From a virus (taxonomy: Duplodnaviria; Heunggongvirae; Uroviricota; Caudoviricetes): a stretch of 64,000 nucleotides of DNA. Location: the IMG/VR virus record IMGVR_UViG_2529292828_000009; one strand, 5' to 3'. Positions 15,491 to 54,159 of this stretch are shown here, piece by piece. The position numbers and the translations under genes were made by a program. Under the pieces are notes generated by a model. That model worked only from the letters and a program-made list of their open reading frames with translations, was not told the origin of the DNA and ran no database searches. The first letter of the stretch is position 1, and every line of letters begins with the position of its first letter.

Positions 15491-15696
15491 CCATTAAGAC
15501 GGGCCGTCCATACAGAACGGGCCACCCCGGACTTATGCTCCATAATTCTGACCGCGCTTTTTACCAGTTCCACCGGTGGGTAAGTGATTTCAAGAATCGG
15601 ACGCGCCACGCCGAGATATGATTCATTTACATGACTCCCGCGCGCCTGTAACCAGTTCTGCGCATCCGTTGCCATTTTTATATTTCGGGCCATCAT
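15469..15696 (-). CDS. kil: Kil-like small protein (first gene after B)
   Basis: 75 aa, position immediately downstream of B as for Mu kil. Confidence 0.4.
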
Positions 15697-15711
15697 AATT
15701 TCTTCTCCTTC

Positions 15712-16650
15712 TTAATTACGCAGCAGCGTTGAAATATCAACGTCCAGGTCTAATTCACGGAAAGCCTGACGCAGATAATCTTCGTTAACACGCTCACCTT
15801 TACCGTGAGCCGTCATGGCGGCAAGGCGAAGTGAATGATTCAGAATGCGAAGCGCACCTGGTTTCTGCGCAATCTGCTGTAATAACTCCAGTTCTTTTTC
15901 GCCGTTAATCTGCCAGGCATCCGCAATAGCTTTTACATCGGCTTTTTTGGTTTTATTAATTGCAGTACGCTTTGCAATACGGGAAAACAGACGGGCAAAT
16001 TCAACCGTTCTGTTACCCCCCGTCATATTTGAATAAACCCGGTGATTTCCCATCAGTACAAGGCCAATACGGGTTGATTCCTGTAACAGGCGGAGTTCTT
16101 CCAGAACTTCGGCACCAAGATGATCAGCTTCGTCGATGATAACCAGCCCCTGTGTACCTTCAAGGCGACGTCGCAGGGCGCGGGAGAGCGGCCCTTTACG
16201 GCGTGGTGCGTCATTCATTCCCAGCTCAAACGCCAGTTCAGTAAGACATTCCAAAACGCTAGCACAGGATGGCGTAATGGTGATCATCCAGACATTGTTA
16301 TTGGTGCGGCGATATTCACGGGCCGCTTCGGTTTTGCCCACACCAGGATTGCCACATACAACAGCAATACTTTCAGTCAGGCTGGCAAAACGCATACTTG
16401 TCCAGATTTGTTTTACCGTCTGCGTTTCCACAAAGCGGGGCGGTTCAGGTAGTTCTGCAACTGCATGATATTTTTCCAGCCAGCGTTGCAGCATTTGTGA
16501 AACACGCTCGTTATCCCCGTTGTACTTATCATTGATAAAACTACTGATAGTTCCGGTAGAAAGTCCGCTCTCAAGAGCAATTTGTTTAAAGGTGGTTTCT
16601 TCATTTTCTACAAGCGTGCGCAGTCCTGCGCGAATATCGGAAATATTCAT
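15712..16650 (-). CDS. B: Mu transposition ATPase MuB
   Basis: 312 aa; Walker A CGNPGVGKTEAA; N-terminal HTH. Confidence 0.9.
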   Translation of the reverse strand: MNISDIRAGLRTLVENEETTFKQIALESGLSTGTISSFINDKYNGDNERVSQMLQRWLEKYHAVAELPEPPRFVETQTVKQIWTSMRFASLTESIAVVCGNPGVGKTEAAREYRRTNNNVWMITITPSCASVLECLTELAFELGMNDAPRRKGPLSRALRRRLEGTQGLVIIDEADHLGAEVLEELRLLQESTRIGLVLMGNHRVYSNMTGGNRTVEFARLFSRIAKRTAINKTKKADVKAIADAWQINGEKELELLQQIAQKPGALRILNHSLRLAAMTAHGKGERVNEDYLRQAFRELDLDVDISTLLRN

Positions 16651-16688
16651 CTGAATAACCTCGTAATTAAATTTTGTTAAAACGTTAA

Positions 16689-18680
16689 TTAAATGACTTT
16701 TTTACGTCTGTTCTGTTCCAGAATATCCAGTGAATGATTCAGATATTCATCACGATCAGTTTCATATTCATCATCGGCTTCCTGGTATTTCACCTGCACC
16801 GTGTTACCGGAAGGCCGGAAAATACCAACAACCCTTGATTCTGGTGCTGCTGGTTCGGCTATCTGCGGCAGCAGTTCAGCAACTTCCAGCGCGTCCATTT
16901 GTTTCTGCGCCTTAATGGCTGCTTTAGTTGCAGATTTCAGTTGTTTCTGGCGGCGGCGATATTCACGGCCTGCCGCTGCATCATTAAATGCAACAGGTGC
17001 CAGACATTCCGCTTCACAGATAAACCGACCGTCCAGGGTGTAACAATAAACCGTGCTGTGTAGCTGCTGCGGATCAAACCTGACCACAACTTTTTTCACG
17101 CCGGCATTCATTAATGCCATGTTGTAATAAACGTTTTTTGCGCCTTTAAGGGAGCCGCCAACTTTAAGCGTAAACTCGCCTTTGCGTGAAACGTTCACCG
17201 CCTCGGCAGGCAGTAACAGCATCCGTTTTTGTTCTTCGGTTGGCTTACGCACAATCGTTCTGGCGTATTCACGCTCGAAAACATCATCAAACGAGAGTTT
17301 GCCCCCGCACATTTCTGTTTCACGGCCTGTTCTGGCATTGAACATCGCCACACCTTCGGCAAGGGTTTTCAGAAACAGCTCTGCATCAACAGCGCGGTCG
17401 CCATAGTTATCAGGTTTTGCCTGCGGATTTGGCCCCGTATATGCGCCAGCCAGTGCCGGATGCTTATCAACGTATTCCTCAAGCCCACCAACACCGAAAG
17501 CACGTTCAACAGGTTTTGCCTGGCCCCAGCCTTTACCAGCAACAACGCTTGTCCAGTGCATTTTCGCACCCATCAGTAAAAACAATCCCTTTGGATCGTC
17601 TTCTTTCACCTTAAAGCGGTAGCGATTGGGCGCGCCTCCCGTCAGCCATTTATTCGCAGCACCACGGGTGTTATCAATGGTGATGTGAAAATCCTCCGGG
17701 ATACCGTAGCGAGTCACAACATCCATGAACGAGAGGCGAATTGAATCAATGTTCTCGCTCACATCGCAGCGCCAGCCCAGAATTTTTCGGGTTTTCACAT
17801 CCTGCCAGAACCATGTTTTCGGGCGGATCACATCACCGTTAAACCAGCGTACAAAGACGTTATGCAGATAACCGTCGCCGTTGATCCACTGCATGGCGTC
17901 CAGGTGTTCCACAGTTCGCTGCTGTGCCGGTATCAGATGCATCAGTGCATGTTCACCTTCACGACAGGCAACAACCATTGCCTCGTCCAGTTGCTGAATC
18001 CGGCGAAAGGCCGTGGCACGGGAGGGAATACTCCAGCCATGCTCGCGGGCTGCCAGTTCCAGACGCTCATAACATTTGCGGAAGGCGGGTTTTTCCGGTC
18101 GCAGATAATCTGCGATCAGAAACTGCCAGGCATCCTCGTCAAATTCACTTTTGTGAACGTTGCGACGGGATGCACCACGTCCATCAACAAGCGCAGCCGC
18201 CCAGTCAGGCTTCGCAAACTTCTGTACCTGGTAATACTTGTCCCGCAAAGTGGATGCGCTGACCTGGTAATGCCCTGCAACGGTCGCAAAAGCCGTTTTT
18301 GTTGAAATCCCCTGGTTCAGCATTTCGTCTGCAGCCTGAACCGCAGGCAACCATTTTTCAGCAAGTCTGCGCTGGGAATCGCTGGCGTTATCCCATTTGC
18401 TCCACAGTGCCTCACGATCATAATCATGGGCTTCCAGCGTGGGGCGGGCGATTTCAAAATACCCCAGGCTTGTTTCAATCTCTCCTTGTCTCAGCAATAA
18501 CGCCGCTTTCGCTTCAACAGGTAAAGAGTTCGCATTGTATTCAATTGCTTTACCACCTTTGACACCTGCTCTAGTGCGGTTTTGCCATCCTTGCTTTTTA
18601 GCAACATAAATCACCCCAGCCGATGTTTTCGGCAAACCAGGAAGATTCGCACACTCTTTCGGTGATACCCAAAGTTCCAT
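16689..18680 (-). CDS. A: Mu transposase MuA (DDE)
   Basis: 663 aa from [15 protein letters not shown]...; recognised as MuA. Confidence 0.9.
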
Positions 18681-18681
18681 G

Positions 18682-18909
18682 TTATTCACCTGCTTGATAT
18701 CGGCTAGGCCAGATTACTTCCGGTTTAGTTTCTAAGGCGTTAGCAATAATCTGCTCACCCTTTGGCCAGTGTCGTTCTAGCGCATTAGCTAATGTAGTTG
18801 GCGCATAACCAAACTGCCGGGAAAGAGCTGATAAAGAGAGCTTTCTTTTCTTAAGTCCCGCAATCACATCCGCACGATGCCAATCACGGGCCTTTTCGTT
18901 GGAACACAT
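18682..18909 (-). CDS. ner: Mu Ner (negative regulator of early transcription)
   Basis: 75 aa [25 protein letters not shown]..., recognised as Mu Ner. Confidence 0.9.
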
Positions 18910-19078
18910 TTAAAAACCCTCCTAAGTTTTGTAATCTATAAAGTTAGCAATTTAACTAAGTGTAAAAACTTAGCTAGCTTGCTAAAAAGATAATTACTGA
19001 AAAGCTTTTTGTAAAGCTGCTTTTTGGTAAATTCCTTTGATTACTGATTAATGCATTGATAAATAAGGGGTTTAAATT
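18910..19078. promoter_or_regulatory. Mu operator region with divergent Pe / Pc promoters (O1-O3)
   Basis: AT-rich divergent intergenic region between ner (minus) and c (plus). Confidence 0.6.
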
Positions 19079-19669
19079 TTGAAAAGTAACTTTATAGAAA
19101 AGGGTGATACTGAAAAGTCAATTTGGTGTTCGCCGCAAGAAATTATGGCTGCTGATGGTATGCCTGGATCTGTTGCTGGTGTTCACTATCGAGCAAATGT
19201 TCAAGGCTGGACGAAGCGGAAAAAGGAAGGTGTCAAGGGGGGGAAAGCTGTTGAATACGATGTGATGTCGATGCCCACCAAAGAACGAGAGCAAGTTATT
19301 GCGCACTTGGGGTTATCCACCCCGGATACTGGTGCTCAAGCCAATGAGAAACAGGATTCTTCGGAACTGATAAACAAATTAACCACAACCTTAATCAATA
19401 TGATTGAAGAGCTGGAACCAGATGAAGCACGCAAGGCACTGAAACTTTTAAGTAAAGGGGGGTTGTTGGCGTTAATGCCTCTTGTATTTAATGAACAGAA
19501 ACTTTACAGCTTTATAGGATTTTCACAGCAAAGTATTCAGACGTTGATGATGCTAGATGCATTACCTGAAGAAAAACGCAAAGAGATTTTGTCAAAGTAT
19601 GGGATTCATGAACAGGAAAGTGTTGTAGTACCTTCACAGGAACCACAGGAGGTAAAAAAAGCCGTATAA
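19079..19669 (+). CDS. c: Mu repressor c
   Basis: 196 aa MKSNFIEKGDTEKSIWCSPQEIMAADGMPGS..., recognised as Mu Repc. Confidence 0.9.
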   Translation: MKSNFIEKGDTEKSIWCSPQEIMAADGMPGSVAGVHYRANVQGWTKRKKEGVKGGKAVEYDVMSMPTKEREQVIAHLGLSTPDTGAQANEKQDSSELINKLTTTLINMIEELEPDEARKALKLLSKGGLLALMPLVFNEQKLYSFIGFSQQSIQTLMMLDALPEEKRKEILSKYGIHEQESVVVPSQEPQEVKKAV

Positions 19670-20004
19670 CAACCATGAACCAGCTAAAACATACTTCACC
19701 TCACATAATCACACATGTAACATACCTAAACGGCATAAGCTGATTTGTGATATGAGTCATTTGGTGACAGCTTGGTTGTTATCGGTTTTGAACGTTTTTT
19801 GAAGCTGTTATTGAAATGATTTGCAGTGTTTTTGTTTTTCGTATTTTCAATGAAACAAAAGCAATTTTTTACTATCTTTCGCGTTTCATTGATTAACGAC
19901 TAAAATTTGCGCTACAGGCTTGCAAGCCCCACCAAATCTAATCCCATCAGATCCCGAATAATCCAATGTCCTCCCGGTTTTTTTCGTACTTCAAGTGAAT
20001 CAAT

Positions 20005-20118
20005 ACAGCCGTTATCTCTGACATAGCCGCGGATAGTAATCGTGCTATCCGCAGCCAAAGCGTGACTCACCGCCAGCCACAAAAAAGCGCACAGAAGATA
20101 AAAAGGTTTGTTTCTCAT
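20005..20118 (-). pseudogene. fimF: fimF 5-prime fragment (first ~38 codons) truncated by the Mu insertion
   Basis: ORF 19912-20121 translates MRNKPFYLLCAFLWLAVSHALAADSTITIRGYVRDNGC (FimF N-terminus) then runs into the Mu end. Confidence 0.85.
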
Positions 20119-20127
20119 CACGCCCCC

Positions 20128-22764
20128 TTAACGACATTCAGCTGATAGCTGGGTTAATAACTGCTGCTGACTCTCTGGTGGCAGTTGATAATTGGCGACA
20201 CAGTGAGCATTTTCCTCTTCTCCCCATTTCACCTGAACTTTTCCCGCTAAAGGCATTCCGCTGAGGTAAACCTGACCATTATCCGCAACAATGCCGCTAC
20301 TCTGGCTACTCTCTGATGTCACCATCGCCCCAAACGGCAGCGGCTTATTATTGTGGGTTAGCGTCATGAGCAGTTTTATCCCAACGCGCGCTTTAAACTC
20401 TGCTCGCACGATCGCCCCACGAGTGGGAACAACGTTAGCGACCGCGTTATCTAAATCGACGTTATCAGCCAGGGTATTGGTATCCAGCGCCACTCTATTT
20501 TCCCGATATTCAGTGGCATAAGGCAGCACGGCATAACCACGCCAGTCGGTACGCACCCCCGTCTGGTTTTCGACTTTTGCATCTTTTGCGCCAGGCGCTT
20601 TAACAAGCACCACTGTTTCGTTTAACGGCTGCCCCAGCGTTACGCCATTGGCATGAGCCAATACCCCACCGCTGACTCCGTAATAGAGCTGCTTAATATC
20701 ATCGCTATGGCTGTAACCGATATTGGCATTGCCGTAACCACCGCGATAATTCAGCGTGGCGTAGCCTGTACTTCCGCTATTACCATCACCTCCCCCGGCA
20801 TAGCCGGTTTGCACGCTATAGCTGAGGTTGTTGTCTTCCAGCAACGTACCGTATACACCAGCCAGATTGGTCATCCGACCGTTGAGATCGTGTGACATGC
20901 TGTAGCTGGCACTGGCATGTCGCCACTGAGATTTACTGTCAGAACGCAGCCAGTGGCTGAAAGGAATATTGACGTTAAGCGCTAACATCTGATCCCGTCC
21001 TTTTTGCCAGGCGTTTTTCGTCAGGCTATAGCTGAGCGTCCAGTTGATATCTTCGAATGCAGTATTTAAACCAGCCTGGAATTGCTCATCGACATTACTC
21101 GTTCCCCAATAAGTTTGATGGCTACCACTCAAATACAGTGTTGATGTGCGCCCGAGTTGCTGAGTAACGGTGAGCTGTAATTTCCCGCGTTTGTTATAAG
21201 CGAGGTTGTAATAGTCGGTGAATTTCGGCTTAACCTGAATAACTCCGTCCTGTGTTTCGATGTTGTAGCCATTCATTCGACTGTATGTTGTATCAGCGAA
21301 ATTAAAATATCCGCTGGTCGAATAACGGTAACCCACTAACTGAATATTCGTGCCTGACTCATTGAGCGATTTGTTATAGAGAAAACGCACCGATTGTCCG
21401 TCATGCTGACTGTCATCGGGAAGTGTGGAATTAGCCTGCGTCATATCCACAGACAGAGCGCCCAATGCCCCCATGTTTTTCCCGATACCGAAATTAAAAG
21501 CACGATAACGATCCGCCAGTTGCGTTCCACCATATATTGTCCAGCCAGCCGGAAGGCCGTGGAGTAATGTACTCTGGAAAAAGCGGGGTTTTTCCTGCTG
21601 CGCATTTCCACTACGGTATTCTCCTGCCGTAATGGAATAACGAGTATGCCCTTCACGTTGCAAAAGCGGGACTGACGAATAGGGTACGGTAAAAATCTGC
21701 GTGCTGCCGTCAGCCTCTTTGATCGTTACCTGCAAGTCACCACTATTACCTGCGGCATAGATATCGTTGATGGTAAAAGGCCCCGGTGGCACCGTACTAT
21801 TATAAATGTCATACCCATTTTGTTTAATAGTGACCTGTGCAGTACCACGAGCAATACCGTGGATCACCGGGGCAAATCCTCTTTGGCTATCGGGTAACAT
21901 ATTGTCATCTGAGGCCAATTGTGCGCCGCGAAAGTTAATACCATCGAAAATATCGCCCTGAGTATAACCATCACCCAGCGTCAGCCGGGAACGTAACGGT
22001 ATTATGTCTCGCTCAAGCCAGGTATTGATATGCTGCCATTTATTTTTGCTACCTGATGATCTGTCGCTACTGTTATAACTCCAGCTGGTATTGTCGCGTA
22101 AACGCCACGCACCAATATTTAACCCACTCTGTAGGTTTAAATATGCATAATGGTTGTTACCCCCAATCCGATTCTGTACACTATTTCCGCTGAAATTATA
22201 ATTGAGCAATCCGGCATTAATACCGGGATCCCATAACTCAGGAGGAATATAACCACGCGCGCGATTACTCATAAATGCCTGAGGGATCGTCAGGTTGAGT
22301 CGCTGCTGACCAACATCTAAATGCGCAGTAGCGTCATGGATCATGGAGGTTAATGGCACGCAGGCATCATCCGCCAGCAGATTCATACCGGAGACAGAAG
22401 CCGTATTCAGCCCCATACTGGCAAGTTGCGCGCGTGTCAGGCAGGGAACAATCCCTTGTTCGCTGTCGCCCGTATTAAATGTGACATCACGCGTTGCCAT
22501 ATAACCATTATTCAAATAGATATCGACACGATACGTCCCTGGCGGTAATTCTTGCCCATTTTCAAAACGCGATAAATCAGCCACAGCCTGGGGATCATCC
22601 GCTAAAAAGCGCGGATTAAAATAGAGTTCGGCAGATGACAAAGGTGTCTGTGCGGCAAAAGCACAGGCGACAAAGAGCCGGACAAAAAAACCAGCCAAAC
22701 GATGCTTACGAATATGCAAGCATTGTGTGTTTCGCTGGTAAAGTCTTAAATTCAGATATGACAT
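20128..22764 (-). CDS. fimD: Type 1 fimbrial usher FimD
   Basis: 878 aa, recognised FimD. Confidence 0.95.
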   Translation of the reverse strand: MSYLNLRLYQRNTQCLHIRKHRLAGFFVRLFVACAFAAQTPLSSAELYFNPRFLADDPQAVADLSRFENGQELPPGTYRVDIYLNNGYMATRDVTFNTGDSEQGIVPCLTRAQLASMGLNTASVSGMNLLADDACVPLTSMIHDATAHLDVGQQRLNLTIPQAFMSNRARGYIPPELWDPGINAGLLNYNFSGNSVQNRIGGNNHYAYLNLQSGLNIGAWRLRDNTSWSYNSSDRSSGSKNKWQHINTWLERDIIPLRSRLTLGDGYTQGDIFDGINFRGAQLASDDNMLPDSQRGFAPVIHGIARGTAQVTIKQNGYDIYNSTVPPGPFTINDIYAAGNSGDLQVTIKEADGSTQIFTVPYSSVPLLQREGHTRYSITAGEYRSGNAQQEKPRFFQSTLLHGLPAGWTIYGGTQLADRYRAFNFGIGKNMGALGALSVDMTQANSTLPDDSQHDGQSVRFLYNKSLNESGTNIQLVGYRYSTSGYFNFADTTYSRMNGYNIETQDGVIQVKPKFTDYYNLAYNKRGKLQLTVTQQLGRTSTLYLSGSHQTYWGTSNVDEQFQAGLNTAFEDINWTLSYSLTKNAWQKGRDQMLALNVNIPFSHWLRSDSKSQWRHASASYSMSHDLNGRMTNLAGVYGTLLEDNNLSYSVQTGYAGGGDGNSGSTGYATLNYRGGYGNANIGYSHSDDIKQLYYGVSGGVLAHANGVTLGQPLNETVVLVKAPGAKDAKVENQTGVRTDWRGYAVLPYATEYRENRVALDTNTLADNVDLDNAVANVVPTRGAIVRAEFKARVGIKLLMTLTHNNKPLPFGAMVTSESSQSSGIVADNGQVYLSGMPLAGKVQVKWGEEENAHCVANYQLPPESQQQLLTQLSAECR

Positions 22765-22830: not shown

Positions 22831-23556
22831 TTATTCCATTACGCCCGTCATTTTGGGGGTAAGTGCGCCATAATCATTTATTGTTCGGTAAGTAATATTG
22901 CTTCCCGCATCAGAAGGCAATTTAACCGTGCTTTCGCCCATTGGAGGCACCAAGGCATTTTCAAGAACCCGGGCTCCGGCATTCAACTCTGTTACCGTCA
23001 GGTAATAGGGTGTCGGGTTAATCAGCGTCAGAGAATTCGCGCTACGACGAAATCTTAATTTTTCTGCGGCCTGATCGGGTGGCAACGCTAATTTAGCCGG
23101 ACGATAGTACAGTTTAATGCGGCTGATAATTGCGAGCTGTAGCGTATTCTCAGTCAATTTTGATTTATCCATTGACGGAATCGCTTTAACGTTCATCCAG
23201 AATAAACTTTCCCGGTCCTGTGGCAATTGGTTATTTGTTGCATCAAGAATACGCAAGGTATTCTCTTTTTTTCCCTTCATCGCAAACAGAGGAGGCGTCA
23301 CGATAAAACGACCATCCTTTACACCATCGGCATTTTCCACCCATGATTGAATTAAATAGGTACTATTTTCATCATTATTTGTCACGGCAAGTTGCACTTG
23401 TTTTTGCCCTGCCGGATAAATTACGCGAGTCGCACCTAAGGCCACTCCCGCTTCAGCGCGTCCGGCAACCATCATTGCCATGAACATCAGGATACCTGCC
23501 AGCAAGCAGAATGTTATTTCCTGCGATTTCCTTACATTGACGTTTTTATTACTCAC
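22831..23556 (-). CDS. fimC: Type 1 fimbrial periplasmic chaperone FimC
   Basis: 241 aa, recognised FimC. Confidence 0.95.
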   Translation of the reverse strand: MSNKNVNVRKSQEITFCLLAGILMFMAMMVAGRAEAGVALGATRVIYPAGQKQVQLAVTNNDENSTYLIQSWVENADGVKDGRFIVTPPLFAMKGKKENTLRILDATNNQLPQDRESLFWMNVKAIPSMDKSKLTENTLQLAIISRIKLYYRPAKLALPPDQAAEKLRFRRSANSLTLINPTPYYLTVTELNAGARVLENALVPPMGESTVKLPSDAGSNITYRTINDYGALTPKMTGVME

Positions 23557-23592: not shown

Positions 23593-24132
23593 TTACTGAT
23601 AGGTTAAAGAGAACCAGGCCTGGGCATTGGCGATGCCGCCAGTAACCCGACGCCCGGTAGCACGATATTTGGCGATGAAATGTAGCGAAGTAGAGCCTGA
23701 GTAAAGCCGTTTCCAGTTTGCTGGAGGACGATTAATCGGTACGAGGTTTCCTTCATCATCAAACAACGCTACGCCAATATTGGTGGCTATCCCTGGCCCC
23801 TCTCCCACGGAAAGCACATCCGGATTTTTACCATCCGCGACACCGTGAAACGCCACACCCACACGTTCACTCACCACCGTGCTACATTCCCGTAAATGAA
23901 TAACAAAAGGCACCGGTGCGCTATCTTCCCCTACCGCATGAAACCGGTTACTGCTGATTTGCCCCATATTGACCGTCATTTGTTTATCACCGGCTTCAAT
24001 CCGGCAAGTTTCCGCAATAATGACGCCCTGAAATTGCATATTTCCGCCGGGCAGCGTGGTATTCCATTTATTTCCGGCCAGAGCAAACATTGGCAGCAAC
24101 GACGCTAATAGAAATAATCTCTTCCTTTTCAT
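23593..24132 (-). CDS. fimI: Fimbrin-like protein FimI
   Basis: Start taken at [13 protein letters not shown] (179 aa); the track ORF is extended upstream. Confidence 0.9.
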
Positions 24133-24196
24133 CGTTATTTTTATCGCACAAGGGTGGGCATCCCTGCCCGTAATGACGTCCCTGAACCTGGGTAGG

Positions 24197-24745
24197 TTAT
24201 TGATACTGAACCTTGAAGGTCGCATCCGCATTAGCAGCACCCGGGGTTGCGGCACCGGTTGCAAAATAACGCGCCTGGAACGGAATGGTGTTGGTTCCGT
24301 TATTCAGGGTTGTTTCTGAACTAAATGTCGCACCGTCCAGCGCCAGCGCAGCACCCGTTCTGTCCAGGATCTGCACACCAACGTTTGTTGCGCTACCCGC
24401 AGCTGAACTCTGCAGAGCCAGAACGTTGGTATGACCCGCATCAATCGCCGTACCTAAAAAGGCAACAGCGGCTTTAGATGCAACATTGGTATCGCAATCA
24501 TTCAGCTGAATGTTAAAACCGACAGCAGAACTGGTCGCTCCTTCCTGTGCCAGCGATGCGGTACGAACCTGTCCTAACTGAACGGTTTGATCAACAGAGC
24601 CTGCATCAACTGCGCAAGCGGCGTTAACAACTTCCCCTTTAAAGTGAACGGTCCCACCATTTACCGTCGTGGCAGCGGCCAGAGCCGCTGTAGAACTGAG
24701 GGACAGAGCCGACAGAACAACGATTGCCAGAGTTTTAATTTTCAT
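24197..24745 (-). CDS. fimA: Type 1 fimbrial major subunit FimA
   Basis: 182 aa, recognised FimA. Confidence 0.95.
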
Positions 24746-24864
24746 GCTGCTTTCCTTTCAAAAAACTATTTCTAAATCGACATGGGCAGTCGTTCTGTAC
24801 ACTTTGTTTTGTCAACGAGTTTGACTGCCAACACTGCACAGTTTTCCCCCAAAAGATGAAACAT

Positions 24865-25178
24865 TTGGGGCCATTTTGACTCATAGAGGAAAGCATCGCG
24901 GACAAACTTTTTCAGTTTATTTGTTGGCTTAATATTCTATTGTTATCTTTATTTATAGATGTTTATATTGCATGAGGTGGTTTTTGGAGAGAAGAATGAG
25001 GAAGATGCGTCGAGCCACAGAAACGTTAGCTTTACATATAGCGGAGGTGATGTGAAATTAATTTATAAGAGAAATAATTTACATATCAAACATTTAGATG
25101 CTTTTTGTCGTTTTTTAATATTTTTATGCTTGAGAAAAAATACGTAACTTATTTATGATATGGACAGTTTGGCCCCAA
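24865..25178. mobile_element. fimS invertible phase-variation switch (314 bp) bounded by 9-bp inverted repeats
   Basis: TTGGGGCCA at 24865-24873 and its complement TGGCCCCAA at 25170-25178. Confidence 0.9.
25130..25159 (+). promoter_or_regulatory. Sigma70-like promoter inside fimS (TTGAGA-18 bp-TATGAT), pointing toward fimE and away from fimA
   Basis: Hexamers read directly at 25130-25135 and 25154-25159 on the plus strand. Confidence 0.55.
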
Positions 25179-25225
25179 TTGTCTTGTATTTATTTGTTTT
25201 TTAACTTTATTATCAATAAGTTAAA

Positions 25226-25822
25226 TCAAACCTCTTCTCTTTTTAATTTTTCGTTTATGAGATTATTTCTTTCCCATAATCCGGCAAAACGAGCAGCATT
25301 ACTGGCGGTATAACGCACAGTATGGCGAATATTTCGATGCCCGAGATAATCCTGAATTAAACGAGTATCTGCACCACGCTCCGCCAGTTCATAACCGCAA
25401 GCATGCCTTAACATATGAGGATGAGTCTGCGTTACGGTTCCAGCTTCAATACCGGCATCGCGAATAATGCGATAGGCCTGCTGGCGAGAAAGCCGACTCC
25501 CGCGGCGAGAAATAAATATAGCGTCAGTCCGGTCAGCGCCTTTCCAGTTAGCACGTTCCTGGGTCCATCGTTCCACGGCTTCACGCTCATCAAAACGTAA
25601 CGGGTGAACGGTAGAAAATCCGTTCTTCAGTCGGCGAATATTTATTCTACCTTCATTAAGGTCAAGGTCCTGATAATGCAGATCAAGCAGTTCACTAATA
25701 CGCATCCCATGCCGATATGCCAACAGAATAAGACAATAATCTCTGGCTCCCGTTGCCCCGTAACAAACCGCCTGCATCATGGCCTGAACTTCTTTACCGG
25801 TAAGATAACGACGTTTACTCAC
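25226..25822 (-). CDS. fimE: fim switch tyrosine recombinase FimE
   Basis: 198 aa, recognised FimE. Confidence 0.95.
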   Translation of the reverse strand: MSKRRYLTGKEVQAMMQAVCYGATGARDYCLILLAYRHGMRISELLDLHYQDLDLNEGRINIRRLKNGFSTVHPLRFDEREAVERWTQERANWKGADRTDAIFISRRGSRLSRQQAYRIIRDAGIEAGTVTQTHPHMLRHACGYELAERGADTRLIQDYLGHRNIRHTVRYTASNAARFAGLWERNNLINEKLKREEV

Positions 25823-26299: not shown

Positions 26300-26902
26300 C
26301 TATAAAACAGCGTGACGCTGTCGTCCTCTGGCTCTATCCCAGATGCCGTAAAAACGCCCTGCATTGCTGGCGGTATACCAGACAGTATGACGAATATTGC
26401 GATGCCCAAGATAATCCTGGATAAGTCGCGTATCTATTCCCATATTCGCCAAAGCAAAACCACACGAATGGCGTAACATGTGCGGATGAATCTCCAGTGA
26501 CAACCCGGCATTACCACCGGAAGTCGAGATAATATGGTAAAACTGTTGCCGAGAAAGCGGATTTCCCTTACGAGATAAAAATACCCACTCGCTCTCAGCA
26601 TGCGGGTACGAAGTACGGATACTCAACCAGTTTTTTAAAGCCTGAACTTCTTTGTTCAATAGCGGATGCGTTGTTGAAAAGCCTTTTTTTAATCGATGGA
26701 TATATATACACTTTGCCTTAAGATCAATATCCGAAATCCTCAATCGACAAATTTCACTCGCCCGGAAACCATGAATAAAACAAAGCAAAGTCAGACAATA
26801 ATTACGTGCTGCATGAGGCCCGGTATTTGCTGCTTTAAGGAGTGATTCGATTTCACTATGGGTCAGGAAGTTCCTTTTTTTGTTATCAGCCTTATTCTTC
26901 AT
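26300..26902 (-). CDS. fimB: fim switch tyrosine recombinase FimB
   Basis: Start at MKNKADNKKRNFLTHSE (200 aa). Confidence 0.95.
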   Translation of the reverse strand: MKNKADNKKRNFLTHSEIESLLKAANTGPHAARNYCLTLLCFIHGFRASEICRLRISDIDLKAKCIYIHRLKKGFSTTHPLLNKEVQALKNWLSIRTSYPHAESEWVFLSRKGNPLSRQQFYHIISTSGGNAGLSLEIHPHMLRHSCGFALANMGIDTRLIQDYLGHRNIRHTVWYTASNAGRFYGIWDRARGRQRHAVL

Positions 26903-28357
26903 CGTTTTTCCCTTATAATTACAGACGCGCACTAGCTGTGCTGGGTTAGCAATAATCCAACATTTTTATCCTGATTATGTTTATAAAAGCGAACGTTTGC
27001 TTAATAACTAACGTAAGTGGACCAGTTCTTCTGAGTGAACTTAAATGGAGTAGCAACAGTTAATTATAATAACGTTGCCATACAAACGCCATGCTCTTGC
27101 ATGCTATGTACCTTTATATATTTATCAATCGGATACGAATCTAATAATAACCCTCATCATTAATGCAACTAATCTTATCTATATATCATGTGATATGTTC
27201 TGTAACAAGTAAAATCAACATAAAAAATTCAGCAAAATTTAATATTCGTTCAACTAGCCGTCTCACATATGACATTATTAGTCAACTCCATTTGCCACAA
27301 AATGGCTATTTCATGGAGCGCAGTAATTTCTTAGTGGCTATTATCATGCTAATTCTTAGGTCCCTAGCGATTATTCCTGGCTGATTCGTCAGCTTACGCC
27401 ATGAGATTGTTACATTCCTTTTTATCCTGGAGATATGGGGAACGCAGGAGATGATTTTTTCATCTACATTCGTTGGTAAATATAGCTTTGGTCACTACGA
27501 CTTAAACCTTCCTCAATCACAGCCATTCGCCGGGCGATACGGCAAACAAACTAAGTGAAACATCATCCTGAAAACACCAACATCAACAAGCCTCTCCAGA
27601 TCGACTTCAGAAGTGACCAGTTACAAGCCACAAACCAGGAAACATATTTCATGATGAGAATTATGCTCAGCCTGATGGCGGGTAAACACTGATTTTCACC
27701 ACGCTCACTGAGTTAGCTTGCAAATCTTTCCTTGTTTATACTTTAAATAAATTACTTATAAAACAGATAATTAAACAACAATCTTTGGTTTGTGAAGGCC
27801 TCCGCAAGTGTTCGTCTGGCTTCACATGGCATCTTCTTCTTAGAAAAATATCGACATATTTTGTGACACGAATTGCAAATCTGGTTTTGTTGTATGGATT
27901 GCGTGATTTTTGATCTGGTATAACAGGTATAAAGGTGCGCCAAGATAGTCAATGAGACAGGGCATCTCGCAATCTATGGCAAACATCACTTCAGTTCTTT
28001 CTCATCGGGTGATGAAAACGCACTTCAGTCTGAAAGGAATATGAAAATGAGATCAACAGACATTCTATTTTATGACTCTGGGTAAAATGGATTGAGTAAG
28101 TGATATAGCTTACGAACATTCAAATCAATTAAACATCAGAAGAGATTTTATACTCAGGTATTTAATCTGGATCTCTGTTTATTTAAATAATGTGAAAAGA
28201 GATTTTTCACAGGAGACCTTATACAAAAAAATATAAAATACAGCTACCGGTTGCCAAAGACACTATAAGCCTGGCAAAAAAATATTACACAACATAAATG
28301 CTAATTGTTTATGCGGGCTTTGTATTGCTTTCTGTATCCTACAAATGAGTGAAATTT
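26903..28357. promoter_or_regulatory. Long AT-rich divergent fimB / nanC regulatory intergenic region
   Basis: ~1.45 kb non-coding region between divergent fimB and nanC; known to carry NanR/NagC/IHF sites in K-12 (not individually mapped here). Confidence 0.6.
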
Positions 28358-33055: not shown

Positions 33056-35440
33056 TTATTTGATTGTTAGCTCATCACACTTGGGAAGCCAGTCTGCATT
33101 ACTTTCCTCTTTTAAAGTGAGGTTAGTCTGCATTCCCTGATTAGTTCGCCGCTTCTCATAATTTAGCCCGTATTCCTTCAGCATAACTGGTAGCCCTTTG
33201 CCAAACATTGTCAGGCTAAGGGTATTTTTAAAGCCATTAGCCTCCATGTATACGAGATAGGCATGGTAAAGGTACGTACGTGGCTGGCGCGGGACAATAT
33301 TGGCGTTCCCCATAAACATGCCGTTGGTGTCAGGTAATGCCTCAAGGTAGCCACAAAAATCAAATGCTGGATCAGCATCACGCTTGATGGTGAGAGCCTC
33401 ATCAGAATTCTGCTGCGACTGAAGCAATGTTCTGGCGCTCATCGGATCGCTGAAACGCTGCATGAGCTGACGAACAATCACAGCCAGTTCTCGTGCAATT
33501 TTATCTTTCAACTGCGGATCGCGTTCTTCCGGTGCTATCTGCTCAGGAAAATGCAGAATAACTCTCCTGCGGGACACACCACCACTGCGATCAGTGAAGC
33601 GCATAGGATTATTATTTACGGCCAAGATAACCGCCGGAATATGTGTTGAATAAGCATTCTGATATTTGGGGTCCACAGATACTGCATCGCCACCAGTTAT
33701 AGCCTTAAGCCCGGCGCCGTCGCCGCTCCACTTCTCCTGATCAGGCAGGCGAATAAGAGAAAAACCTATCAGAGCCGCACGTTCTCGCGGGGACTCCAGC
33801 GTTTCAATGGTCGCAGAGGTGGCGTTATCCTCTCCAGCAAGCATGGTCGCAATTTCAGCCAGAATACTTTTGCCACTTCCACCAGGGCCAGTCACTTCCA
33901 GAAAGAGCTGCCAGTCATAACGGTTCGCCAGCACCATAAATAACGCTGCAAGAATAATGTCGCGTTTTGCTGGCTTGTGTCCGGCGGCCCGGTCCAACCA
34001 ACGCCAGAATGCCGGGGCATGAGTTTCAAGCGTTTCCCCCTTTACCGGTGGCGTGAAATCGACTTCACACAGGGTACGCAGCCAGTTCTCTTTACAGTGC
34101 GGACTAAAAAGCCCTGTTCGCGTATCGAGAACGCCATTACGAAAACCAATCAGATGACGTGACGGATTTTGCTGCTGCGGAACAATTAACTTTAATGTTT
34201 CCACCAGTGAGGCAATTTTTCCTGAGGAAAACGGTGCCCCGAGGCGCTGGAAAAGGGCTGCGACATCTCGGGCAAAATCTGACTGAGAAATAACTTTCCA
34301 CGCTCCAGACTCGTAGCGGGATAAAAGCTGCCCGTTCGGATCAACCGCCAGTGCATCCCTGTAATGCTCCCGAACCCTCTGAGCTTTTTCGCTGACACTC
34401 ATCGCTGTGAATTCTGCTTCACTCATTGTGTCGAAAGGACTGGCGTTATGTGGCTTCAAAGCCTCAAGAATTGCCTTCCGGGTGGATTCCTCTCCGTATT
34501 GGGTAAGCGCATCATTCCAGTCACCAAAAACCGGTGGCAGCACAATGTCACACTGACTCGCTTTTGCAGCAGTTTCAGCCCTGTTCTGGCCTGAACCATT
34601 CAGATCGCGGTCCGCTGCAATAATTAACTGATATCCAGGATACTTATTATGGGCAACGCTGCTCAGAGAAAGAAAGTTGACCGACGAAAATGCCACCATG
34701 ACGGCTTCTCCTGTCAAATAATGAATGGTAAGCGCCGTGGCGTAACCTTCCGTAATCCAAATCCTTCTTACAGAACTCCCGCCCCCTTCTATCAGATGAT
34801 AGGCCTCCTTAACCTGACCTCCTTTAAGAAAACACTTGCTACCATTGCTACTGATAAGCTGAATATTCACCAGCTCCCCGTCAGCGTTATAGAGTGGGAC
34901 GATCAAATCACCGGGGCGGAACATCACACCACCGGCCTTATGAGCTGAAGTCAGCTCATGGCAAATATGCTCCGGGAAACCTTTATGTGTAAGATAAGTG
35001 TTTCCGGCAGATTCACGCGAGGCTTGCAGCAGTCGCGCGGCAAGTGCTGCCGCTGCATCTTTCCCGCTATCGGTATCGGCGGTTAACGTCCTGACCTCGG
35101 AATTAACTATAGACAGATCATGTGTCAGTCCATGTATCCTGTCAGCTGCTTCACTGATATCCACATTCAGTGCCCTGGTGACAAGCGCTAAACCATCCCC
35201 GGCTCCGCACTGATTGCAGAACCATGTTCCGCGTCCTTCCTGATCGTCGAAGCGAAAACGATCTTTACCGCCACAGACCGGGCAAGGCTGATGGCGATTT
35301 TTCAATATATTCACGCCCAGCGCTGGCAGAATCTGAGCCCAGTGACCGCGGGCAGCCTTCACGGCCTGACTGACTTTCATTCCTGACATGACGCAGTTCT
35401 CCCTCAGTGTAAAACCGGCTTTTTGATGTGACGGACGCAT
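33056..35440 (-). CDS. P4 alpha-like primase / helicase
   Basis: N-terminal zinc-binding CPVCGG...CNQCG, central Toprim-like region, C-terminal Walker A GPGGSGKS; true start probably at MSGMKVSQ. Confidence 0.8.
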
Positions 35441-35727
35441 AACTCATCCATTACGGCTATTCCGAGCTGGGAGAGTGCGGGACAGGACATTAGAGGGCCG
35501 TATTCCATCAGGTCTGAAAGCAGGGCGCAGGCGATTTCCATGCCTTTTGTTTGCCCGTGCTGTCGCAGATAAAATCCTTCAAGCTCACGGGCAATAGCGG
35601 TTTCAATTTCATCCAGAGTGAGCTGCAGATGGCGGTTTTGCTGATAGCAGGCACTCAACCAGGCGCAGGCTACCGCGCGGCGATACAACGCTACCCGAAG
35701 TGAAAGGGAAAGAGTGCGTGATTTCAT
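35404..35727 (-). CDS. P4-like hypothetical protein upstream of primase
   Basis: 107 aa ORF, position. Confidence 0.3.
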
Positions 35728-35987
35728 TGCACCACCTCCATGTTCATGAGGTCATCCTGGCAACGCTGTACCACGCCATCAAGCTGCTCTGTCATCAGAT
35801 AAATCAGGGAAACCAGTTGTTCACATTGAGCACTGGCAGGTTTTTCGTAGCAATCCTGAAGAACAGCCATTCCAGTGACAAACTCTCCCACGTTACGAAG
35901 ATGCTTCAGGCGGAGAATATCGTCATAAGAGATTGCGGCGTGATTCATTAGATCACCTCCCGGACAGGCAGGCGAGCAGCAAGACAA
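35724..35987 (-). CDS. P4-like hypothetical protein
   Basis: 87 aa ORF, position. Confidence 0.3.
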
Positions 35988-36139
35988 AGCACATACTCAT
36001 GGACCAGTGAAAGACGTGCATGATGCTCATTGCTGGCGATGATACGCAGCATACTGATACGTGGTTTACGTTCTGCACGACGAACGGCGGCAAAAACAAA
36101 TATAAATTGAGGATGTGACGGGGCGAGGATCGTAGCCAT

Positions 36140-36410
36140 AAGGGCAACCTCCAATAAGTAGCGGTAAATGCCACCACCGGAGTTCCTACGCTCATGGGTG
36201 GTGACCCGAACGGGGGTAGGAATACCGGCCTTATTGGAAACCGGCCAGCCCGAAGGCTGCCCCGCCCGGACCACCATTATCTGAAAGGGGCTAAGGTATA
36301 AGCACCGCAGCCCGAAAAATGGGTGTGCCTGAGCAACGACGTAAAAAAAGACGCACGGCGCGTCTGGTGTCGCCAATAAGTAACTCGGGTTCCTACGCCC
36401 GGCAGCCGAT
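36140..36410 (-). ncRNA. Candidate structured RNA / P4-type RNA immunity region (direct repeats flanking a complementary element)
   Basis: CCAATAAGTA...GTTCCTACGC at 36151-36191 and again at 36373-36400; complementary GGCCTTATTGG at 36227-36237; GC-rich, no convincing ORF. Confidence 0.35.
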
Positions 36411-36492
36411 TTTGCGGCAGCGGGAAAACTATACCTGGAAAAGATATCAGGACGCAAGCCAGAAAAAAGGAGATGAGACTGCAAAGCAAGTT

Positions 36493-39842: not shown

Positions 39843-41141
39843 ATGATTATGACTACAAATCCGGACGGATACATCTCATTTTTAAAACCCGGTAGTAACG
39901 ACTGGAAAGCATTAGATAGTAAATCGTTTATTTATTGGCGAGACTACATAACGAATGAAAGTTTAGAAGAGTCAGGAGATTCTATTTCTCCAGCACAATC
40001 TCTTACTGATGGTGAAAAGAAGGAGTTGAAAGACAATCAGGCATATATAAACGAACTATTACTAAAATCATTACAATTCCCAAATCTTGCATTCTTCGCT
40101 GGGAGTGGTACTTCGCTTGGGGACGTTGGAGGACCAAGCATGTGGGATCTCTGGAAGTGTGCAATGTGGAGTGAATCTTCTATAAACGAGGATGGTCAAT
40201 TAAAACCTGATGCTCAAATTGTTTGTGATAAAGTAAAATATAAAGAGCGAGAGTATCCTAACATAGAACACTTTCTTTCTAATTGTGAAGCATATTTAGC
40301 ATTTCATGATGATGAAGAAGTGTTGAATTTTTTAAATAAAGTTAAAACAATTATTTTAGACAAATGTCGCTCATTTATTGATGATGGCAACTGTGATCTT
40401 TCAGCTTACATCAATTTATTACAAAAAATGGGGAGGAGGAGAGTCAGAGATCCTAGACTAAAAGTTTTCACAACTAACTATGATTTAGCCTTTGAAACAG
40501 CTGCTTCTGAATTAGGAATGATGGTAGTTGATGGTCTTTCATATACAGGAGTTCGCAGATTCGATGGTAAATATTTTAACTACGATGTTGTTAAAAGAGA
40601 TGAAAACGAGCATGAGTTTGTAGAGGGCGTATTCCAGTTATTTAAACTCCACGGTTCTGTAAGTTGGATAAGAAAGGATGGGCAAATATATGAATCCAGC
40701 CAACCAACAGCAACAAACGCATGTCTAATATATCCAGCGAAAGGTAAATATCAGCAAGCCTTTATTCAACCTCACTTAGAATTACTTTCAAGATTGTTAG
40801 ATTTCTTGAGAAAAAGAAATAACTGTTTAGTTATATCTGGATTTGGTTTCAATGATGACCATCTTTCTGAACCAATTTACTCAGCAATAAAATCCAATCC
40901 AAGCATGAGGTTGATTATAGTAGATTTCAAATGTGCAACTCATATTCGGAATAAAGGGGGGGACGGTTCTAGTAAATATTGGGATTTACTAAAACAACTC
41001 TCACTATCAGGTTATGACATTCACTTCATAAATGCATCTTTCAGTGATTTTGTTAAATTAGTTCCCAATCTTAAAGCATTAACCCCAGCAGAACAGTTGG
41101 CTAAGGTAATAAAACAAGTAGGAGTTAACAATCAATTATGA
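39843..41141 (+). CDS. SIR2-family (sirtuin-like NADase) protein, partner of HerA
   Basis: FFAGSGTS Rossmann loop, VFTTNYD, KLHGS motifs; 432 aa. Confidence 0.7.
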   Translation: MIMTTNPDGYISFLKPGSNDWKALDSKSFIYWRDYITNESLEESGDSISPAQSLTDGEKKELKDNQAYINELLLKSLQFPNLAFFAGSGTSLGDVGGPSMWDLWKCAMWSESSINEDGQLKPDAQIVCDKVKYKEREYPNIEHFLSNCEAYLAFHDDEEVLNFLNKVKTIILDKCRSFIDDGNCDLSAYINLLQKMGRRRVRDPRLKVFTTNYDLAFETAASELGMMVVDGLSYTGVRRFDGKYFNYDVVKRDENEHEFVEGVFQLFKLHGSVSWIRKDGQIYESSQPTATNACLIYPAKGKYQQAFIQPHLELLSRLLDFLRKRNNCLVISGFGFNDDHLSEPIYSAIKSNPSMRLIIVDFKCATHIRNKGGDGSSKYWDLLKQLSLSGYDIHFINASFSDFVKLVPNLKALTPAEQLAKVIKQVGVNNQL

Positions 41142-42859
41142 TTAATACAACACTACAGCTTGGTATTTTGAGGGGCGACCTTAAGGTTGGAGTAGTCTCA
41201 TCAATTTTTGCTCAAACAGTTAGAGCAAATTTAATCTATGCAGGGGAACTCAGCGGAACATATATAGAAGGTTGTAGATATGGAAAAGGAGAAGTTGGTG
41301 AAATATTATTAATAGAAGGACAACAATCTATTGTTCTTGGCCGTTTAATAGAGGTTAAATTACCAGAGCGAGATAGAGGTGAAATATCTGTCGGGTCTCA
41401 AGGAAACTTCAAAGTTGATGCTATCGGCATTATACAACTTCTTGGAACTATTGATCCTTCAAATTTTAGAATTGATTCAGGAATCAAATCATATCCTCGA
41501 TTAGGAGATCGAGTTTATTCTGCTCCCTTAGATTTTATTTCTTTAATACCAGAATTAATTAATAAAGGAATTAAAGATAACGAGGAAGAAAGAATAGGTA
41601 TTGTATTAGGCATTATATCTGGAGGGGCAACAAGTATAGTAACTGTTGAACCTGATAAACTCTTCGGTCGTCATTGTGCTATCTTAGGAGCTACAGGCGG
41701 TGGAAAAAGTTGGACAACTTCCAAGTTAATTGAAGAGTGTTCGAATTACGAAAACTCTAAAACTATAATAATTGATGCAACCAGTGAGTATAGATCGTTT
41801 AAATCTGATTATTGTTTACATTACCATTTAGGTGCCCCAATAAATAAAAACATAAATTCTTTAGAATTTAGAATTCCACCTACCGACTTTGTTGAGTCAG
41901 ACTTTATTGCCATGTTCGATCCTTCTGGAAAAGTACAGGGTCCTAAGCTAAAAGAAGCGATAAAAAGCCTTAGATTAGTAGCTTTAGAACCTAGAATAGC
42001 AACCGATGGTATTTTAAAAAAAATCAATCAACCTAAAACAGATTATCGACGCGCAATGAATACTGGAGACAACTCTAAACTTGTTGATAATCCATCACAA
42101 CCATTTGATATAACAAAACTTATAAAACAGATTGTACAAGAATGTTGTTACGATAATGGAGATAATACTTGGGGAAACGCTGCAACTCAAGACTTAAGCT
42201 ATTGCTCATCTTTGTTAACCAGAATTCAAGCAGTAACGTATGCCAACTCGTTAAGGTCTGTTTTTAATAGTAACGAGGATATATCCACACTAGGTGAAAT
42301 ATTAGAAACTTTTTTACAATCTGATAAACGAGTCCTAAGGTTATGCCTAAGTGATGTTAGCTATGAGTTTTATGCTAGAGAAATTTTAGCCAATGTAATC
42401 GGCAGAAAACTTTTAACTTTAGCTAGGCTTGAAAAATTCAGAACAAGACCGCTGTTAGTTATTGTTGATGAAGCCCATAACTTCCTTGGCAAACGGGTTG
42501 GTTCTGAAGATCATGCAATTAAACTTGACGCTTTTGAGATGATTGCAAAAGAAGGCAGGAAATATGGCCTTAATATATGCTTAACAACTCAAAGACCCAG
42601 AGATATCACTGAAGGTGTGCTTAGTCAAATTGGAACCTTATTGGTTCATCGCTTAACAAACGACCGAGATCGAGAAGTCGTTGAGCGTGCATGCGGTGAA
42701 ATTGATAAATCTGCAGCATCTTTTCTACCAAGTCTCAAACAAGGTGAAGTTGCTCTTGTAGGGGTTGACTTCCCTATTCCTATGACCATCCAGATAGATA
42801 AGCCAATATATCCACCAGAATCTGATTCTCCAGGCTATTGCAATATATGGAAAAAATAA
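41138..42859 (+). CDS. HerA-like FtsK/HerA-family ATPase
   Basis: Walker A AILGATGGGKSWT, Walker B LLVIVDEAHNF, TTQRP; 4-nt ATGA overlap with SIR2 gene. Confidence 0.8.
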   Translation: MINTTLQLGILRGDLKVGVVSSIFAQTVRANLIYAGELSGTYIEGCRYGKGEVGEILLIEGQQSIVLGRLIEVKLPERDRGEISVGSQGNFKVDAIGIIQLLGTIDPSNFRIDSGIKSYPRLGDRVYSAPLDFISLIPELINKGIKDNEEERIGIVLGIISGGATSIVTVEPDKLFGRHCAILGATGGGKSWTTSKLIEECSNYENSKTIIIDATSEYRSFKSDYCLHYHLGAPINKNINSLEFRIPPTDFVESDFIAMFDPSGKVQGPKLKEAIKSLRLVALEPRIATDGILKKINQPKTDYRRAMNTGDNSKLVDNPSQPFDITKLIKQIVQECCYDNGDNTWGNAATQDLSYCSSLLTRIQAVTYANSLRSVFNSNEDISTLGEILETFLQSDKRVLRLCLSDVSYEFYAREILANVIGRKLLTLARLEKFRTRPLLVIVDEAHNFLGKRVGSEDHAIKLDAFEMIAKEGRKYGLNICLTTQRPRDITEGVLSQIGTLLVHRLTNDRDREVVERACGEIDKSAASFLPSLKQGEVALVGVDFPIPMTIQIDKPIYPPESDSPGYCNIWKK

Positions 42860-42897: not shown

Positions 42898-44169
42898 CTA
42901 GATAGTTTTTTTTGCAAAGTCGTAGGGGGTTATATATTCCTGAGTGTTAGCATCAAGATAATCGGCCCACCACTGAACCATTAAACGACGCTCATCCAAA
43001 TGCTCTGAAGTATGAATATAAGCAGCCCTAACGCTATTACGCTCAGAGTGGCTTAGCTGACGTTCTATCGCGTCATCACTCCACAACCCTGATTCGCCCA
43101 AAGCACCGCGCGCCATAGTTCTGAATCCATGCCCGCAAACTTCGGTTTTTGTGTCATACCCCATTGTGCGCAAAGCACTGTTAACCGTGTTTTCACTCAT
43201 AACTTTAGTTGCGTCATGATCTCCCGGAAACAGTAGCTCTTTATCACCACTAATCTGCTTAAGCTGCTCTAACAAAATCATCGCCTGCCGACTAAGCGGA
43301 ACGATATGCTCCTCTTTCATCTTCATCCCACGGTACGAGTAACGGACACCTTTAATTTCTTCTCGTTTTGCCGGTATACGCCAAAGAGATTTATCGAAGT
43401 CGAATTCATCCCAGCGAGCGAAACGCAACTCACTGGAACGCACAAAAGTTAGTAAGGAAAGCTCGACTGCAATCCGTGTCATTAAACGGCCACGATATGC
43501 AGCAAGACGTGCAAGAAACTCAGGGAAACGGTTAGAGGGTAAAGCTGGATAGTGTCGTGCTTTGGTTGTCGATAAAGCACCAGCCATATCACTGGCTGGG
43601 TTTGAGTCGATATAATCGTTCTGTACGGCATAACGCATAATAGCTGTAACACGCTGCTGAAGACGCTGCGCGACGTCATGCTTACCACTGGCATCAACTT
43701 TTTTAATCGGGGCTAACAGGTGGCTTGTTTTAAGCTGGCGGATATCGGACGATCCGATATGAGGGAAGATATAAAGCTCAAGATAGCGAAGAACGCGCGC
43801 TCTATGGTCTTCACTCCAGCGCTTGTTACTGGCATGCCATTCACGAGCGATCGTTTCGAAAGTATATGCCCCCGATTTCTCGGCCTGAGCCGCTTTCTGC
43901 TCGGCTTTTGGATCAATACCCTGCACTAATAATCTTTTAGCTTCATCACGTTTTGCCCTTGCCTGGGCAAGTGTCACAGTAGGCCAAACGCCAAAAGCGA
44001 GGCGATCCTCTTTTTTGTCTGAAGGGCGTCTGTATTTCATACGCCAGTATTTAGATCCCTTGGCCGAAACCTCAAGATACAAACCGCCACCATCGGCCAT
44101 TTTGTAGGTTTTGTCTTTTGGCTTTGCGGTCTCGACCAGTCTGGCGTTGAGCTTCATTTGGGGGCACAT
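42898..44169 (-). CDS. P4-family tyrosine integrase of the satellite island
   Basis: Homologous to the integrase at 62135-63385 (shared AVMRYAVQN, FVRSSELRFARW, VCGHGFR, RAAYIH); probable start MKLNARL at 44157. Confidence 0.85.
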   Translation of the reverse strand: MCPQMKLNARLVETAKPKDKTYKMADGGGLYLEVSAKGSKYWRMKYRRPSDKKEDRLAFGVWPTVTLAQARAKRDEAKRLLVQGIDPKAEQKAAQAEKSGAYTFETIAREWHASNKRWSEDHRARVLRYLELYIFPHIGSSDIRQLKTSHLLAPIKKVDASGKHDVAQRLQQRVTAIMRYAVQNDYIDSNPASDMAGALSTTKARHYPALPSNRFPEFLARLAAYRGRLMTRIAVELSLLTFVRSSELRFARWDEFDFDKSLWRIPAKREEIKGVRYSYRGMKMKEEHIVPLSRQAMILLEQLKQISGDKELLFPGDHDATKVMSENTVNSALRTMGYDTKTEVCGHGFRTMARGALGESGLWSDDAIERQLSHSERNSVRAAYIHTSEHLDERRLMVQWWADYLDANTQEYITPYDFAKKTI

Positions 44170-46985: not shown

Positions 46986-47013
46986 AAAAGAGGGGTCCCC
47001 CCCCCTCTTTTTT
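46986..47013 (-). terminator. Rho-independent terminator at the 3-prime end of the RM gene
   Basis: AAAAGAGGGG (46986-46995) / CCCCTCTTTT (47002-47011) stem with flanking T-run. Confidence 0.55.
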
Positions 47014-50290: not shown

Positions 50291-50835
50291 CGTTACATCT
50301 CTATGTTACATAGCAAATTTCTTATAATTTTACCACATTTCAATAAATATTTCATCATGTTTGTTTGGTATTATCCATACACTTGAGAAAAGTTAATTTC
50401 ACAATTAAGCAAGGGCTAACTCTCCGAAGCTCCGCTTCTTATAGTTCCCCTTGATTTTCTTTCTTTCAGTCAGAAAATACAGACATTTCATCATGAAAAT
50501 TGATAATTTATTTTTAGTATTAAAGTATTATCTCACCTTATCGCCGAACCGATTTGAGATTTAGTGCAACTATAAGTATAGTTCCCCTGACAAATAGCTT
50601 TCTTATTTAAGTAACGGTTAAACGATAGGGCCTCACTACTGGTGCCAATCATGCCATACTCTCAAATGCTACCCCTGCAGACAGGGCTCTACTACCGTAA
50701 AGCTGGCATAAAGTATTATAGTTACCTCTCTTAAAAGGAATTTCTAACTCATGTACCAGATCTACATGAGTTCTACATCCCCCTGATGAACTTAGCAGTG
50801 ATAGCTAACCGATACTGAAGTGTACTGCTGAGTGA

Positions 50836-50887
50836 TTTGACAAATAGAAAATATTAAGCTATAACAGTTGTATCCTACAGGATACAA
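50836..50887 (+). promoter_or_regulatory. Sigma70-like promoter (TTGACA-17 bp-TATAAC) followed by a perfect palindromic operator
   Basis: TTGACA 50836-50841, TATAAC 50859-50864, palindrome GTTGTATCCTACAGGATACAAC 50866-50887. Confidence 0.55.
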
Positions 50888-50899
50888 CATGAGAGCATT

Positions 50900-51157: not shown

Positions 51158-51170
51158 AGAGGAGAGATTT

Positions 51171-52418: not shown

Positions 52419-52430
52419 AAATTTCTAATT

Positions 52431-53621
<1,191 letters not shown>

Positions 53622-54118: not shown

Positions 54119-54159
54119 AATTAATTTCACACAATCGCAAACATAAAATGAGAAAGTAA

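Follow-up and report, generated by a model that had tools for sequence, protein, structure and literature searches.

The fimS phase switch of an Escherichia coli fim cluster, assembled in phase OFF next to a fimF gene interrupted by a Mu-like prophage

The fim cluster and its genomic setting

The window, that is the whole stretch of 64,000 nucleotides analysed here, contains a fim gene cluster read on the minus strand, in which a 314-bp element at 24865-25178, identified by direct reading of the sequence, separates fimE from fimA. The features of the locus are collected in Table 1. fimA codes for the major fimbrial subunit and is the first gene of the operon controlled by the element; its product differs at one residue from K-12 FimA when the two translations are compared by eye. 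On the other side of the element are located the genes of two tyrosine recombinases: FimE, which drives the ON-to-OFF inversion, and FimB, which acts in both directions. Both genes are intact, and their products (198 and 200 amino acids, respectively) are identical to the K-12 proteins; in fimB, all 200 codons are read through.

Downstream of fimD, the operon is interrupted. fimF starts at position 20118 on the minus strand and reads MRNKPFYLLCAFLWLAVSHALAADSTITIRGYVRDNGC, then turns into TGTATTGATTCACTTGAAGTACG, and the Mu left end, TGTATTGATTCACTTGAAG, follows directly after approximately codon 38. Window positions 1-20007 display 97.7% identity to positions 1-20566 of phage Mu, the match ending exactly at Mu position 1. 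The prophage has the same orientation as the fim operon and continues past the left edge of the window, so that the rest of fimF, together with fimG and fimH, lies outside it. The fimF disruption reported in the preliminary description is thus real, and consists of the insertion of a Mu-like prophage. Mu-like prophages of E. coli W and of other strains, inserted elsewhere in the genome, share about 98.8% identity with the portion present in the window; the fimF::Mu junction itself was found in no complete E. coli genome of the collection, in which the best coverage of the region 15500-20300 was 94% and came from Mu-like prophages located elsewhere.

On the fimB side, colinearity with strain WAT (99.9% identity) stops at position 32477, and the sequence beyond is a variable island (32477-63659) that ends at the tRNA-Leu gene leuX. 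The fim cluster has been described as part of the leuX island (PMC4374849), and the layout of the window fits this description. The island includes a P4-satellite-like module on the minus strand (33056-36421), with a 794-amino acid primase/D5-helicase protein at 33056-35440 and Rfam matches for the C4 antisense RNA (36194-36281) and isrK (36344-36421). On the plus strand, at 39843-42859, two overlapping adjacent ORFs code for a SIR2_2-domain protein (432 amino acids) and a HerA-like DUF87 ATPase (573 amino acids); judged from these domains, they look like a SIR2-HerA anti-phage defence pair. The region 47012-60224 contains several mobile-element genes; it comprises three consecutive minus-strand ORFs (55854-60224), two of which code for tyrosine recombinases, while the third (624 amino acids) has no Pfam match.

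Table 1. Features of the fim locus and of the neighbouring prophage and island, in window coordinates
Feature	Position	Strand	Basis or remark
Left ~20 kb (~20.5 kb) of Mu-like prophage in fimF	1-20007	-	Mu homology; junction 20004-20007
B-like ATPase	15712-16650	-	Mu-like prophage
Transposase A-like ORF	16689-18689	-	Mu-like prophage
Repressor-like ORF	19079-19669	+	Mu-like prophage
fimD	20128-22764	-	ORF list
fimC	22831-23556	-	ORF list
ORF containing fimI	23593-24264	-	ORF list
fimA	24197-24745	-	ORF, homology
IRR, fimA-proximal 9-bp inverted repeat, recombination site	24865-24873	+	Sequence, repeat search
BstUI site CGCG, unique, orientation assay; by IRR when OFF	24897-24900	.	Sequence
Fis site overlapping LRP-2, promoter-distal end of fimS (predicted)	24907-24942	.	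Flanks of the PMC9993118 mutagenic oligonucleotide, matched by eye
Candidate IHF-2, inside fimS	25084-25096	+	Consensus match; presumptive assignment
PfimA-like sigma-70 promoter TTGAGA-18-TATGAT	25130-25159	+	Points toward fimE, away from fimA
SnaBI site TACGTA, unique in the element, published orientation assay	25141-25146	.	Sequence
IRL, fimE-proximal 9-bp inverted repeat	25170-25178	-	Sequence, repeat search
Candidate IHF-1, just outside IRL	25211-25223	+	Consensus match; presumptive assignment
fimE, intact	25226-25822	-	Annotated fimE in matching genomes
fimB, intact	26300-26902	-	K-12 start codon; ORF list 26300-26932
Second P4-type integrase, next to the SIR2/HerA-like pair	42898-44169	-	
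Eco57I-like N6-methyltransferase/restriction fusion, 1092 aa	47012-50290	-	
MobA/VirD2 relaxase	52431-53621	+	
P4-type integrase beside leuX	62135-63385	-	
tRNA-Leu(CAA) leuX, island end	63575-63659	-	

Identity of the element and its predicted sites

The 9-bp sequence of the fimS repeats, their role in recombination and the 314-bp definition of the element are given in PMC9820224. In the window, the fimA-proximal repeat (IRR) reads TTGGGGCCA, and the same word is found on the minus strand at the fimE-proximal repeat (IRL), where the plus strand reads TGGCCCCAA; the intact element and its two boundaries had been reported before, and all these coordinates agree with the sequence. Exactly two copies of the 9-mer are present in the 64-kb window, one on each strand, and an inverted-repeat finder extended the pair to imperfect arms of 22 nt. 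Two or more copies also occurred in 16 of 100 shuffled sequences, so the repeat pair alone is not beyond chance. Similarly, three promoter-like sites were observed against 2.3 +/- 1.5 expected from shuffles, which is no enrichment in this AT-rich region. Since neither the repeats nor the promoter motif is remarkable singly, fimS is called real on the basis of homology: 4727 E. coli records have a match to the region 24600-25450, that of strain WAT at 100% identity, and in these records the segment is always flanked by annotated fimE and fimA.

On every sequence-level criterion tested, the segment belongs to the fimS family, having a length of 314 bp, perfect 9-bp repeats, a location between fimE and fimA, and intact FimB and FimE. 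Compared with fimS of K-12 and uropathogenic strains, which is served by the same two recombinases, it has the same length, repeats, position and assay restriction sites, and lies in the same orientation as in the MG1655 and UTI89 references, with identical FimB and FimE. In this common orientation, 311 of the 314 bases are identical to K-12 fimS, the remaining three being substitutions; the flanks differ by 1 bp in an A-run and by one further substitution. Comparison at this level detects no functional difference from the K-12 element. The switch itself holds nothing new, fimS being a long-studied textbook invertible promoter; the invertible element of E. coli was reportedly described by Abraham et al. 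in 1985.

A promoter scan of the region 24700-25300 returned as its top match the motif formed by TTGAGA (25130-25135), an 18-nt spacer and TATGAT (25154-25159), which agrees with the consensus at 10 of 12 positions; the other two matches reach 9 of 12. The motif adjoins the fimE-proximal repeat, at the opposite end of the element from the promoter-distal Fis site. By its position and its consensus, it is probably the fimA promoter reported by Olsen & Klemm 1994; transcription would start at approximately 25165-25167, just inside IRL. The preliminary description had already placed a strong sigma-70-like motif here, on the plus strand, close to fimE and directed away from fimA, and this stands, as fimA and fimE are both located on the minus strand. 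A weaker motif inside fimS, TTGATA-18-TAAATT, runs on the minus strand from 25089 to 25060, toward fimA in the OFF orientation, and matches the consensus at 9 of 12 positions. It is probably a chance occurrence in DNA of 32% GC; at the same time, it is the sole candidate source of a residual, low-level transcription toward fimA in the OFF state.

The accessory sites may also be located by comparison with the published system, in which IHF-1 adjoins IRL and IHF-2 lies inside fimS (PMC9993118). One IHF consensus match, WATCAANNNNTTR, falls within the element and is the candidate IHF-2, while another, just outside IRL, is the candidate IHF-1. The predicted Fis site, which overlaps LRP-2, agrees over 24907-24942 with the wild-type sequence implied by the mutagenic oligonucleotide of PMC9993118; the mutagenised core, TTTGTTGGC, corresponds to 24920-24928, at a distance of 47-55 bp from IRR. 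The region 24846-24980 is delimited by the probe primers BSREVBIO (24846-24866) and BSFORBIO (24961-24980), and the published probe contains LRP-1 and LRP-2 (PMC9993118). The legend of Fig. 1 in the same paper places the BstUI site between LRP-2 and IRR. At the sequence level, the predicted sites reproduce the known layout, with IHF-1 outside IRL, IHF-2 inside the element, and the Lrp and Fis sites at the promoter-distal end.

Orientation of the assembled element

The phase call was built on restriction assays that had been calibrated against phenotype, and is therefore independent of the identity of the promoter. BstUI digestion of the OL4/OL20 amplicon is reported to give fragments of 539 and 187 bp in phase OFF and of 433 and 293 bp in phase ON (PMC9993118). 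The same assay performed in silico yielded 188 and 539 bp for the window, and 434 and 293 bp for the ON control, strain 382634_2f (L003), in which fimS runs opposite to that of the window. For the Inv-1/Inv-2 amplicon digested with SnaBI, the published sizes are 440 and 161 bp in phase OFF and 403 and 198 bp in phase ON (PMC4374849). This digest had been proposed as a check in the preliminary description, which had correctly located the TACGTA site at 25141-25146, where it is single within fimS; performed in silico, it gave 442 and 161 bp for the window, which are the sizes of phase OFF, and 198 and 405 bp both for the control and for the window with fimS flipped.

Comparison with reference genomes, also suggested earlier, leads to the same call. 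The fimS of the UTI89 reference genome is stated to be OFF (PMC6458436), and the window is colinear with UTI89 over the whole fimE-fimA interval, as it is with the MG1655 reference and with O157:H7, while it is the inverse of strain 382634_2f. In the ON assembly of that strain, the TTGAGA/TATGAT motif adjoins the fimA-proximal repeat and is aimed at fimA. The position of the Fis site provides a fourth calibration: in PMC9993118, this site belongs to the promoter-distal end, at a distance of 50 bp to the repeat, and is drawn at the right (IRR) end of the element in phase OFF. In the window, it likewise lies close to the fimA-proximal repeat. The two digests, the colinearity with UTI89 and the Fis-site position all support phase OFF for the assembled molecule, and the orientation assigned in the preliminary description is upheld.

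The opposite reading, that the element is really ON and that the fimA promoter is a minus-strand motif such as TTGATA-18-TAAATT, has a vanishingly small probability. It draws on the presence, in the promoter scan, of a 9/12 motif directed at fimA; against it, both calibrated digests yield the OFF sizes, and an ON state through an alternative promoter is refuted by these assays. The window is also colinear with O157:H7, whose fimS is fixed OFF. In addition, it is colinear with the UTI89 reference, stated to be OFF (PMC6458436), and its Fis-site geometry is that of the phase-OFF drawing (PMC9993118). The segment is, almost certainly, the standard phase switch fimS of E. coli, present in this assembly in its OFF orientation.

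How much this orientation says about the strain is a separate matter. An assembly is a population consensus, in which a minority ON fraction is invisible. Sequenced DNA can hold both orientations of fimS (PMC6458436), and the culture could have been a mixture of ON and OFF cells from which the assembler took one path, in which case the assembled orientation would be arbitrary and would not indicate the phase of the strain. This explanation, which would alter the weight of the orientation and not which orientation is present, has a small probability: an intact FimE makes switching from ON to OFF prevail, so that most cells of a culture are OFF (PMC9993118), and the fact that 94% of the complete assemblies are alike fits a consensus that reflects a true OFF majority. 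Indeed, the orientation of the window was found in 4460 of the 4726 fim-bearing complete E. coli genomes (94.4%), a genome being counted as colinear when the match covered at least 80% of the 851-bp query, while 251 genomes (5.3%) were colinear with the query flipped in silico, and hence ON. The element therefore occurs in both orientations among complete E. coli genomes. With the flipped-fimS 851-bp query, at least 11 complete genomes matched at 100% identity, so that the exact allele of the window exists in phase ON elsewhere.

Phase OFF, probably reversible, and inactivated fimF

In phase OFF, the fimA promoter, located beside IRL, would fire toward fimE, leaving fimA, fimI, fimC, fimD and the genes that follow promoterless and untranscribed. 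FimE, whose ON-to-OFF activity is dominant, and FimB, active in both directions, could re-invert fimS by site-specific recombination within the 9-bp repeats; inversion would require IHF, with Lrp and Fis shaping its bias (PMC9993118). The fimE transcript that reads into fimS would be shortened and destabilised, in phase OFF, by a Rho-dependent terminator inside the element. The disconnection of the promoter in phase OFF, the action of the Rho-dependent terminator on fimE only in this phase, and the bias of FimE toward OFF are described in PMC2647292 and PMC9993118. For the exact transcription start, the occupancy of the predicted sites by proteins, the terminator, and the switching in this strain, we follow the literature or infer from it.

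Some lineages have a permanently silent switch, and a mutation that locks fimS in phase OFF, such as the 16-bp deletion of O157:H7 or a fimB nonsense mutation of the S. flexneri type, would be a permanent second lesion at this locus. In S. flexneri, fimB contains a nonsense mutation at codon 162 (PMC4374849), while the O157:H7 deletion is visible in our alignment as a 16-bp gap in fimS of strain PNUSAE147325 (alignment columns 119-134). What speaks for such a lock is that fimF is already disabled by the Mu-like prophage, so that more decay at this locus would be unsurprising. The O157:H7 element also has the same OFF orientation and the same flanks as the window; however, the 16 bp missing there are present in the window, and its fimS is not, by sequence comparison, the locked variant of O157:H7 type. 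Furthermore, the full 314 bp and perfect repeats are present, only three substitutions separate the element from K-12 fimS, FimB and FimE show 100% identity to their functional K-12 counterparts, fimB being intact unlike that of S. flexneri, and at least 11 other complete genomes contain the same 851 bp with fimS ON. A lock by the O157:H7 deletion or by a recombinase mutation was thus rejected on the basis of the full switch and of the K-12-identical recombinases, and a locked element of any such type has a very slight probability.

The fim clusters of Shigella have lost their function through insertion sequences and point mutations, and in all of them fimS is OFF (PMC4374849). The window resembles these clusters in having an OFF switch, an insertion in a structural fim gene and a leuX-linked location; it differs from them in that the insert is a Mu-like prophage of the ~37-kb class in fimF, with no insertion sequence, and in that fimB is intact. 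A causal link between the OFF state and the prophage may also be considered, in which this lineage would be kept OFF more strictly than the wild type: ON cells would make FimA, FimC and FimD without the adaptor and the adhesin, and would transcribe into the left end of the prophage, possibly at a fitness cost. The chance of such a link is slim, and OFF as the plain default accounts fully for the data.

The OFF orientation is here very probably the default and reversible majority phase, and neither a heritable defect nor a second lesion; reversibility is predicted from the intact state of fimB, fimE and the switch. In cells that produce FimB and FimE together, the preference of the latter for ON-to-OFF inversion prevails, and most of the population is OFF (PMC9993118). 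The preliminary description had considered the locus doubly silenced: the part concerning fimF stands, while to count the OFF phase as a silencing event was an overstatement, this phase being reversible and shared by 94% of the genomes. The OFF orientation says little about the strain, and the finding carries little weight beyond correct annotation, as an OFF fimS is the norm in assemblies. The lesson for annotation is that no gene inactivation should be scored on account of an OFF fimS.

The prophage in fimF, unlike the OFF fimS, merits such a score. By severing fimF, fimG and fimH from the promoter, it is the true inactivating event at this locus; the strain would be devoid of adhesive type 1 fimbriae even with the switch ON, and the insertion predicts that no functional mannose-binding type 1 fimbriae are formed.
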